DNA of 5,033 nt from a virus (taxonomy: Duplodnaviria; Heunggongvirae; Uroviricota; Caudoviricetes). Location of the stretch: IMG/VR virus record IMGVR_UViG_2698536647_000008; one strand, given 5' to 3'. The notes below the pieces were generated by a model that saw only the letters and a list, made by a program, of their open reading frames with translations, did not search any database and had not been told where the DNA came from. Below, in pieces: positions 3,896-5,033 of the stretch (its first letter is position 1; each line of letters begins with the position of its first letter). Made by a program: the position numbers and the translations under genes.

Positions 3896-4737
3896 TTACC
3901 ACAAGCCCATACGTACACGTAACACATTATTATTATCATAGATTTGAATGATGTTATTACTGATAACCATACGACCAGTACCGCCACTACCATTAATCAA
4001 AATGGTTCCGGCTTTATTGATTTGCCAGCCTGTAGAGTTAGCAACATAGTTAGTTGATTGAATAGTACTGGCTATCTTCGCCGTAGTAATAGTTGCATCA
4101 GCGATTTTAGCCGTATTCACGCTTAAGTTAGCTATCTTAGCGTTTGTAATCGCGGCATCAGCAATATAACCAGTACCAATACTCGCCGCCTGAATCATGG
4201 CAGTTTTGAGATAAGTAGTACCGTTAACAATAGCGAAAGGTGCAGTACCGCCCACGGTCGCCGCATCAGTACCGGACACAATAAACTTGTTAGCGGCAAC
4301 ATATAAAGCTGAGTTTGTAGCCGTTCCTGAAGAAGCAACTAGCCGGATGCCTGCAACTGTACCATTAGCATTTACGGATAGAGAGTACTGGCTATCTACT
4401 GTGCTTGCAGTTGCCTTTGTGCTCATCTGTTGGTTAACGGTAGCTATCTGCCCGTTCACATCACTACGTAGCTGTGTGACAGCCTGTGATTGTGCTGTGT
4501 TGTTAGTCGCAACTGTCTGTGTAAGCGTACCGATACTTGCCGTGTTCCCGTCTACGGTGTTTTTCAATGTATCAACACGGGTATTGGTGTACTCGTTCGA
4601 TTCATTGACGGCGTTTTCTAACGTCTCTGTTAGTCGGTCATCGAGATCAAGAATACCGTTTATCGCATCTGCATCCTCTTCAGTGAACTGGTATTTGCTG
4701 TTAATACTAATCGTCTGCTCTGGACAGTACTGAATAT
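3896..4737 (-). pseudogene. Phage tail-fibre / receptor-binding protein, C-terminal ~280 codons only; 5' end cut off by the IS3 insertion
   Basis: The reading frame is open from the IS3 boundary to TAA at 3898..3896. The apparent TTG start at 4753 lies inside the IS3 terminal repeat, and the frame stays open through IS3 sequence up to a stop at 4786..4784, so no native start is present. The product has a coiled-coil-like polar stretch, an Ala/Thr/Ile-rich region with a periodic AKIA motif, and a fibre-like C-terminus ([28 protein letters not shown]). Confidence 0.7.
4070..4165 (-). repeat. Three tandem ~30-bp (10-aa) units inside the tail-fibre coding sequence, encoding (A/T)ITxAKIA
   Basis: Hand translation of codons 4070..4168 gives [33 protein letters not shown], with AKIA recurring every 10 residues. 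The DNA units are visibly related (gctatcttcgccgtagtaatagttgcatcagc / gctatcttagcgtttgtaatcgcggcatcagc). Confidence 0.5.
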
Positions 4738-4776
4738 TGATCTTACCCAGCAATAGTGGACACGCGGCTAAGTGAG
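4738..4776. repeat. IS3 left terminal inverted repeat (IRL), about 39 bp
   Basis: Starts with the TGA terminal trinucleotide at 4738..4740. The extent is from memory of the IS3 terminal repeats; the partner repeat (IRR) lies outside the window, so it cannot be verified here. Confidence 0.7.
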
Positions 4777-4802
4777 TAAACTCTCAGTCAGAGGTGACTC
4801 AC

Positions 4803-5033
4803 ATGACAAAAACAGTATCAACCAGTAAAAAACCCCGTAAACAGCATTCGCCTGAATTTCGCAGTGAAGCCCTGAAGCTTGCTGAACGCATCGGTGTTAC
4901 TGCCGCAGCCCGTGAACTCAGCCTGTATGAATCACAGCTCTACAACTGGCGCAGTAAACAGCAAAATCAGCAGACGTCTTCTGAACGTGAACTGGAGATG
5001 TCTACCGAGATTGCACGTCTCAAACGCCAGCTG
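4803..5033 (+). CDS. insE: IS3 transposase OrfA (InsE), N-terminal 77 codons; truncated by the window edge
   Basis: ATG at 4803 preceded by GAGGTGA with a 5-nt spacer. Translation MTKTVSTSKKPRKQHSPEFRSEALKLAERIGVTAAARELSLYESQLYNWRSKQQNQQTSSERELEMSTEIARLKRQL matches the E. coli IS3 OrfA N-terminus as I recall it, including the helix-turn-helix region. No stop before the window ends. Confidence 0.93.
   Translation, partial: MTKTVSTSKKPRKQHSPEFRSEALKLAERIGVTAAARELSLYESQLYNWRSKQQNQQTSSERELEMSTEIARLKRQL

Follow-up and report, generated by a model that had tools for sequence, protein, structure and literature searches.

IS3 insertion in the tail-tip fibre gene of an Escherichia coli prophage located between mipA and yeaG

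Results

Gene content of the prophage segment

The stretch of DNA analysed here (5,033 nt, referred to as the window) is part of a prophage that lies between mipA and yeaG in the E. coli chromosome. All genes of positions 1-4753 are carried on the minus strand, with the single exception of a lysozyme gene on the plus strand. In the order of transcription, the minus-strand block comprises a 285-aa open reading frame (ORF), genes of 98, 218 and 88 aa and then a hairpin, while a SegE-like GIY-YIG gene and four small genes lie beyond the lysozyme gene. The 98-aa gene (3554-3850, minus; phrog_7961) is of unknown function and sits directly 3' of the fibre gene, a position that it keeps beside an intact 1067-aa gene at four related loci described below (L011, L012, L014 and L015). 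Also of unknown function is the 218-aa gene (2896-3552, minus), which has a precomputed match to DUF8377 (PF28254) and matches phrog_4524 with an E-value of 1.3e-58; a separate Pfam search with the 218-aa protein returned no match. The 88-aa gene (2589-2855, minus) is the last of the block and encodes a hydrophobic N-terminus followed by a coiled-coil-like remainder, for which family searches gave no significant match. Between the convergent 88-aa and lysozyme genes, a terminator-like hairpin with a 15-pair stem (2552-2586) was scored on the minus strand only; inspection of the sequence shows a palindromic stem with T-runs after it on either strand. The lysozyme gene (2101-2550, plus) was assigned by its Pfam match to PF00959 (Phage_lysozyme).

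Several features of the neighbouring genes were recorded alongside. The SegE-like GIY-YIG gene (1611-2060, minus), which is of the homing-endonuclease type, separates the lysozyme gene from the small distal genes, and a shorter version of 141 aa is found in L011 and L015. At the left edge of the window, a 143-aa gene (1-432, minus) encodes a signal-peptide-like N-terminus; its place is taken in L012 by a 265-aa AbiGi-domain gene (L012:13419-14216), and this position, close to one end of the prophage, resembles a slot for variable cargo. PADLOC applied to the neighbouring genes identified no defence-system family, its sole match being a weak one of the homing-endonuclease kind. The 98-aa and 218-aa proteins have a common N-terminal motif, G-L/F-x-x-W/Y-N-S-A-G-x-L-x-x-D, with a pairwise E-value of only 0.028; a second instance of the motif is found in the 218-aa protein at residue 107 (LDVFNASGTL).

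The window ends inside an IS3 element

The last 296 bp of the window (4738-5033, plus) are the left part of an IS3 element, within which the window stops. We compared this segment with four independent E. coli IS3 copies, taken from the E2348/69 chromosome, plasmid pE7476_162 and strains 504239 and 2018-10-1CC, which RefSeq labels as 'IS3-like element IS3 family transposase'. The initial annotation had placed an IS3 end at 4738, and the comparison bears this out: the identity is 296/296, with no mismatch to any of the four copies, and in all four the similarity to the window ends immediately 5' of the sequence TGATC, as does the similarity of the copies to one another. With an E-value of about 1e-153 the match is far beyond chance, and of 5426 complete E. 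coli genomes, 4563 contain IS3 matches, with a median of 3 places per genome. The left inverted repeat (IRL, about 39 bp; 4738-4776, plus) begins with TGATC. In the complete copy of locus L007, the two ends are identical at 28 of 39 positions in an ungapped alignment and both read TGATC from the tip inwards (TGATC...GATCA for the element). The 5' part of orfA, encoding the OrfA transposase, occupies 4803-5033 (plus), where the ATG is at IS3 position 66 and the first 77 codons are included. PF01527 (HTH_Tnp_1) was detected on the called orfA gene in L007, L009 and L016, and the called gene or genes of IS3 carry HTH_Tnp_1, HTH_21 and rve domains. Two overlapping frames of 108 and 305 codons are present; that a programmed -1 frameshift fuses orfA and orfB is taken from the RefSeq annotation of near-identical IS3 copies.

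A shifted boundary or a target preference was considered as well, as some BLAST alignments start at 4719-4727, that is 11-19 bp past the end of the element. This was rejected as a ranking artefact: the aligned flanks belong to the top BLAST rows, which among thousands of IS3 copies resemble the present flank by chance.

The adjoining reading frame is the 3' fragment of a 1067-codon gene

The minus-strand frame that abuts IS3 is open from 3896 to an in-frame TGA within the element, and the first start codon after this TGA is a TTG at 4753. From there, five IS3-derived codons (TTG CTG GGT AAG ATC, M L G K I; 4739-4753, minus) precede the phage sequence, and the next codon, AAT, takes the last base of IS3 (4738). 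What remains (3896-4737, minus) is the 3' fragment of a J-like central tail-fibre gene, which starts at the second base of codon 788 and runs through codon 1067 to the stop. Aligned with WP_101972879.1, a protein of 1067 aa from E. coli 14EC007 named 'phage tail tip fiber protein', the 285-aa ORF covers residues 783-1067 at 84% identity without a gap, and the similarity starts at the boundary codon and runs to the C-terminus. At the nucleotide level, 839 nt of 3896-4737 agree without a difference with the intact 1067-codon alleles of L011 and L014. The initial annotation had described a fibre ORF that lacks a native start and stays open into IS3, and the beginning of homology exactly at the IS3 boundary confirms this description. 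It was equally right that the TTG at 4753, inside IS3, is the only start that yields the full-length ORF; shorter in-frame starts lie further in, at TTG 4567, GTG 4459 and ATG 4426. No Shine-Dalgarno sequence was found upstream of TTG 4753 (preceded by the 18 nt TTAGCCGCGTGTCCACTA), TTG 4567, GTG 4459 or ATG 4426.

One could read the 285-aa ORF as a natural stand-alone tip-fibre gene with IS3 sitting in the intergenic region upstream, since stand-alone modules of this type exist (PDB 7z4b_EA, a 322-aa 'putative tail tip fiber protein', aligns to residues 828-1067) and the protein search returned many short homologues. However, many of these short homologues carry a 'partial' label in the database or stem from small contigs, the homology to the 1067-aa proteins is gapless right up to the IS3 boundary, and intact alleles with only 4 nt differences continue uninterrupted through the site. 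We therefore regard a stand-alone gene as extremely improbable and treat the ORF as the distal fragment of an interrupted gene.

A complete IS3 flanked by a 3-bp duplication separates two in-register gene fragments

In order to view the insertion site beyond the window, loci were collected via an exact-sequence look-up of the 98-aa neighbour protein. The whole window is an exact reverse-complement substring of three assemblies, L007, L009 and L016, and window position p corresponds to L007 position 13851-p. The initial annotation had suggested looking to the right for the other IS3 end, a 3-bp target-site duplication and the resumption of the 5' portion of the gene, and comparing the site with relatives that lack the insertion; the first three were found, and so were relatives without the insertion. 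L007 carries a complete IS3 of 1258 bp (7856-9113), and its junctions read ...GACAATA|IS3|ATATTCAG..., with ATA on both sides. The copy of the duplication that falls in the window lies at 4735-4737 and reads TAT on the plus strand, ATA in gene orientation. Directly past the right IS3 end, in register, follows a 793-aa ORF composed of 788 native codons and the residues MILPT from the right repeat. The uninterrupted loci L011, L012, L014 and L015 read GACAATATTCAG with a single ATA, and the L011, L014 and L015 alleles run straight through the site. When IS3 and one ATA were removed in silico, a 3204-nt ORF of 1067 codons with zero internal stops was restored, which differs from the intact alleles of L011 and L014 by 4 nt and from that of L015 by 5 nt. 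In Pluralibacter, Pseudocitrobacter and Phytobacter, species-representative genomes also have 1067-codon genes, whose frame is open for about 787-803 codons ahead of the break point. All 4 differences are non-synonymous, and with L012 as the reference, just two of them are derived changes of this lineage; relaxed selection on the restored gene was considered and set aside, two derived changes being too few for such a conclusion.

The complete, duplication-flanked IS3 and the restorable ORF indicate a simple insertion that split the gene without loss of sequence at this point. Of the earlier proposal that the 5' part had been 'separated or lost', the first half holds and the second does not, as the 788 codons lie directly past the complete 1258-bp element. 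IS3 is known to cause adjacent deletions (PMC8860574), the window by itself would be compatible with a genome from which the 5' part of the fibre gene has truly disappeared through such a deletion or rearrangement, and L008 and L010 show an IS5-linked loss of most of the gene. Yet the contigs that bear the window show a full IS3, the 3-bp duplication and the 788 codons in register beyond, which leaves a true 5' loss with next to no probability. A similarly negligible chance is assigned to a junction created by chimeric assembly from a collapsed IS3 repeat: IS3 is multi-copy and IS copies are frequent points of breaks and misjoins in draft assemblies, but the same 5033 bases are found in three assemblies, in two cases within contigs of 4.8-4.9 Mb, the 3-bp duplication is identical at the two junctions, and the diagnostic products recur on many contigs (see below). 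A simple IS3 insertion into a continuous gene is thus the reading that we carry forward.

The interrupted gene is predicted to encode the central fibre of the tail tip

We next considered the protein encoded by the restored gene. The full protein matches phrog_31 ('central tail fiber J') with an E-value of 4.8e-58 and phrog_5616 ('tail fiber protein') over residues 11-560, and it contains an FN3 domain at residues 505-585. The N-terminal and central part that matches J-type proteins is encoded outside the window, at L007:5491-7855. Within the C-terminal part, PF09327 (Phage_Tail_Tip) covers residues 994-1044 with 73 bits against a cut-off of 22, the PDB tip-fibre chains 7z4b_EA, 9l9p_S and 9ze4_N match residues 828-1067, and a J-like tip protein and an F2-pyocin fibre match residues of about 820-1067. 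In L011 and L012 the gene order is major tail (PF08813), two small genes, a 736-aa gene, genes of 185 aa and 207 aa, a DUF6950 gene and the 1067-aa gene, where the 736-aa gene is probably the tape measure to judge from its size and position. From the phrog_31, FN3 and PF09327 matches, the solved tip-fibre chains and the place of the gene after the tape-measure-like and tip genes, its product is predicted to be a lambda-J-like central fibre of a siphovirus-type tail tip rather than a side fibre. The initial label of 'tail-fibre gene' therefore stands as regards a fibre, but in the specific sense of the central (tip) type and not of a side fibre.

In phage lambda, gpJ is a trimeric protein that takes part in tip assembly and binds the receptor through its C-terminal part. 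By analogy, the distal module within the window, with its straight-fibre and C-terminal parts, would be the receptor-contacting end of the fibre, and the separated 5' part would build the tip hub. The domain matches also fit the initial view of the missing 5' part as the one that attaches to the tail.

The IS3 end facing the fragment is the wrong one for outward transcription

The initial annotation had further raised the possibility that the IS3 end supplies a hybrid promoter for the remaining genes, in which case the fragment and the genes downstream of it (4737 to 2589) would form an IS-driven, domesticated module. In support of such a module, neither the remnant nor any of the three genes after it is damaged, all of them match their counterparts at loci with an intact fibre gene exactly, and IS3 can activate neighbouring genes by an outward promoter (PMC8860574, citing Charlier et al. 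1982). However, the fragment adjoins IRL, reads away from it and is antisense to orfA, and the two IS3 promoters described in PMC8860574, P3L and P3R, both read in the direction of the transposase. In the IS3 family, as shown for IS2, the outward -35 element resides in the right end, and the left end of IS2 provides the -10 element of the circle-junction promoter that drives the transposase (PMC3219604). Scanning the minus strand of 4650-4860 for the sigma-70 consensus revealed no site with at least 9/12 matches, and a relaxed scan of the same interval gave sigma-70-like matches of 7-8/12 at best. As noted above, TTG 4753 also lacks a Shine-Dalgarno sequence. A hybrid promoter for the fragment is not borne out by these results, and we consider an IS-driven module very unlikely. 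The suggestion that the same promoter would drive the lysis gene fails separately: the lysozyme gene is on the plus strand, past the hairpin at 2552-2586, and hence outside any such transcript.

At the other junction of the element, outside the window, the insertion has created a sigma-70-like sequence next to the right inverted repeat (IRR) (L007:7832-7859, plus), TTGACG-16-TATGAT, which is a consensus match only, at 10/12. Half of its -10 element is phage flank and half is the IS3 right end, and it points into IS3 towards the fragment, antisense to the transposase. A simple scan found no terminator-like site inside IS3. This motif together with a terminator-free element leaves room for some read-through transcription across IS3 into the remnant. 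The break at residue 788 falls just upstream of the module of about residues 782/828-1067, which is a separate tip-fibre gene in some phages. That the distal fragment and the three intact downstream genes are still transcribed and kept for a host-level function, such as receptor masking or exclusion, is nevertheless highly improbable in our estimation.

The insertion is inherited in an E. coli lineage whose prophage family is found in several genera

The exact 285-aa product is deposited as WP_053263596.1 ('MULTISPECIES ... [Escherichia]') and occurs on 44 contigs, and the exact 793-aa product occurs on 49. As both products bear IS3-derived residues and mark the junctions, their letter-for-letter recurrence on these contigs indicates that the insertion is inherited within a lineage. 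None of the 5426 complete RefSeq E. coli genomes contains at least 80% of the window, and the 40-nt junction was absent from an exact search of the GTDB contigs with one genome per species, as expected if the representative is free of the insertion.

The same prophage family also lies beside mipA in another genus, on a Dryocola/Cedecea contig (L012). There, the phage DNA is 94-97% identical, whereas the chromosomal flank is merely about 79% identical. This difference, together with the intact fibre genes in Pluralibacter, Pseudocitrobacter and Phytobacter, suggests that the family may represent a recently mobile temperate phage that has no sequenced representative.

A tail-gene deletion makes the prophage defective independently of IS3

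We observed a second lesion in L007, outside the window, where a deletion of about 6 kb has fused an S74-domain fibre gene with the last (3') quarter of the 736-aa gene (L007:2650-2710). The deletion junction corresponds to a jump from about 6374 in L010 to about 3918 in L011 and shows the microhomology ATA. L007 lacks the remainder of the S74-domain gene, the major-tail gene and two small genes, and about three quarters of the tape-measure-like gene. With this loss of tail genes, the prophage is defective (tail-less) regardless of IS3. The initial annotation had argued from the IS3 insertion for a defective or domesticated prophage or phage-like island in a bacterial replicon; the prophage is indeed defective, but it is the deletion of about 6 kb, not IS3, that demonstrates it.

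Other members of the family carry lesions of their own. In L009, a member of the L007 lineage, another IS3-family element lies within the 5' fragment. In L013, an independent IS3 (L013:8002-9259) sits in the fibre gene 146 bp further 3', in the same orientation and with the duplication TAC, at the equivalent of window positions 4589-4591. A third IS3, again in the same orientation and with the duplication CTG, lies between head-tail genes in L008 and L010. The prophage has thus received three independent IS3 insertions, all antisense to the late genes. At the same two loci, L008 and L010, the IS5-linked loss leaves the S74-domain fibre gene running straight to a 75-aa tip-fibre remnant beside IS5. 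In Scandinavium lactucae (L020:5631-8839), the orthologous fibre gene consists of ORFs of 914 aa and 147 aa with no IS called, and this split is probably another independent inactivation by a frameshift or stop. Among complete genomes, E. coli AREA_C483 (L001) and 14EC007 (L002) hold mipA-yeaG prophage remnants of about 16-20 kb that are riddled with insertions of IS3-family elements, IS5 and a group II intron; AREA_C483 keeps window part 1-2809 at 99.9% identity.

Discussion

Our analysis favours a simple IS3 transposition that split the 1067-codon tail-tip gene of the mipA-yeaG prophage in E. coli and left a dead remnant as an inherited lesion, one of several in a decaying prophage, a reading to which we assign a probability of about 0.93. 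In this sequence of events, IS3 entered the gene within codons 788/789, antisense to the phage late genes, and duplicated ATA. The 5' piece, outside the window, consists of 788 native residues followed by MILPT and would encode the hub-forming and FN3 part, and the 3' piece in the window (3896-4737) retains the distal fibre module without a native start, a ribosome-binding site or a promoter of its own. We infer that the fibre has lost its function and that the remnant is not expressed.

As an event, IS3 pseudogenisation of a tail-tip gene in a decaying E. coli prophage is ordinary and already known in kind, and its importance lies mainly in correct annotation. The database entries WP_053263596.1 and WP_249437062.1 ('tail tip fiber' and 'phage tail protein'; 285 and 793 aa) are the halves of one IS3-split pseudogene, and both carry a few IS-derived residues. 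The two IS3 junctions can be used as lineage markers, and the locus provides a clear example of stepwise IS-driven prophage decay. Of more interest than the insertion is the prophage family itself, which is found in several genera of enterobacteria but has no relative among sequenced phages.

Compared with known systems, the element agrees with the E. coli IS3 (IS3 family, 1258 bp) in length, ends, OrfA/OrfB domains and 3-bp duplication; the L007 copy has 4 mismatches to the IS3 of E2348/69 and is otherwise unremarkable. The IS3 'mobile promoter' P3R offers a parallel in that IS3 likewise lies beside a promoter-less fragment, but there transcription leaves the right end, whereas the fragment here lies beside IRL, at the wrong end and in the wrong orientation. 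With the lambda gpJ-type and T1-like J tip proteins and the F2-pyocin fibre, the restored product shares its size (1067 aa) and the layout of an N-terminal region that matches J-type hub proteins, an FN3 domain and a C-terminal straight fibre, and its gene likewise follows the tape-measure and distal-tail genes, with the difference that it is split by IS3. Sequenced phages are distant: the best protein match, from Escherichia phage DCP80, has 28% identity over 96% of the protein, and when the phage portion of the window was compared with 50,697 phage records by megablast, no nucleotide match emerged. A parallel to the locus as a whole is found in the IS-decayed cryptic prophages of E. coli and Shigella. 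The mipA-yeaG family differs from these in having no named phage relative in the collections searched, and it shows the same pattern of multiple independent IS insertions and deletions across lineages.
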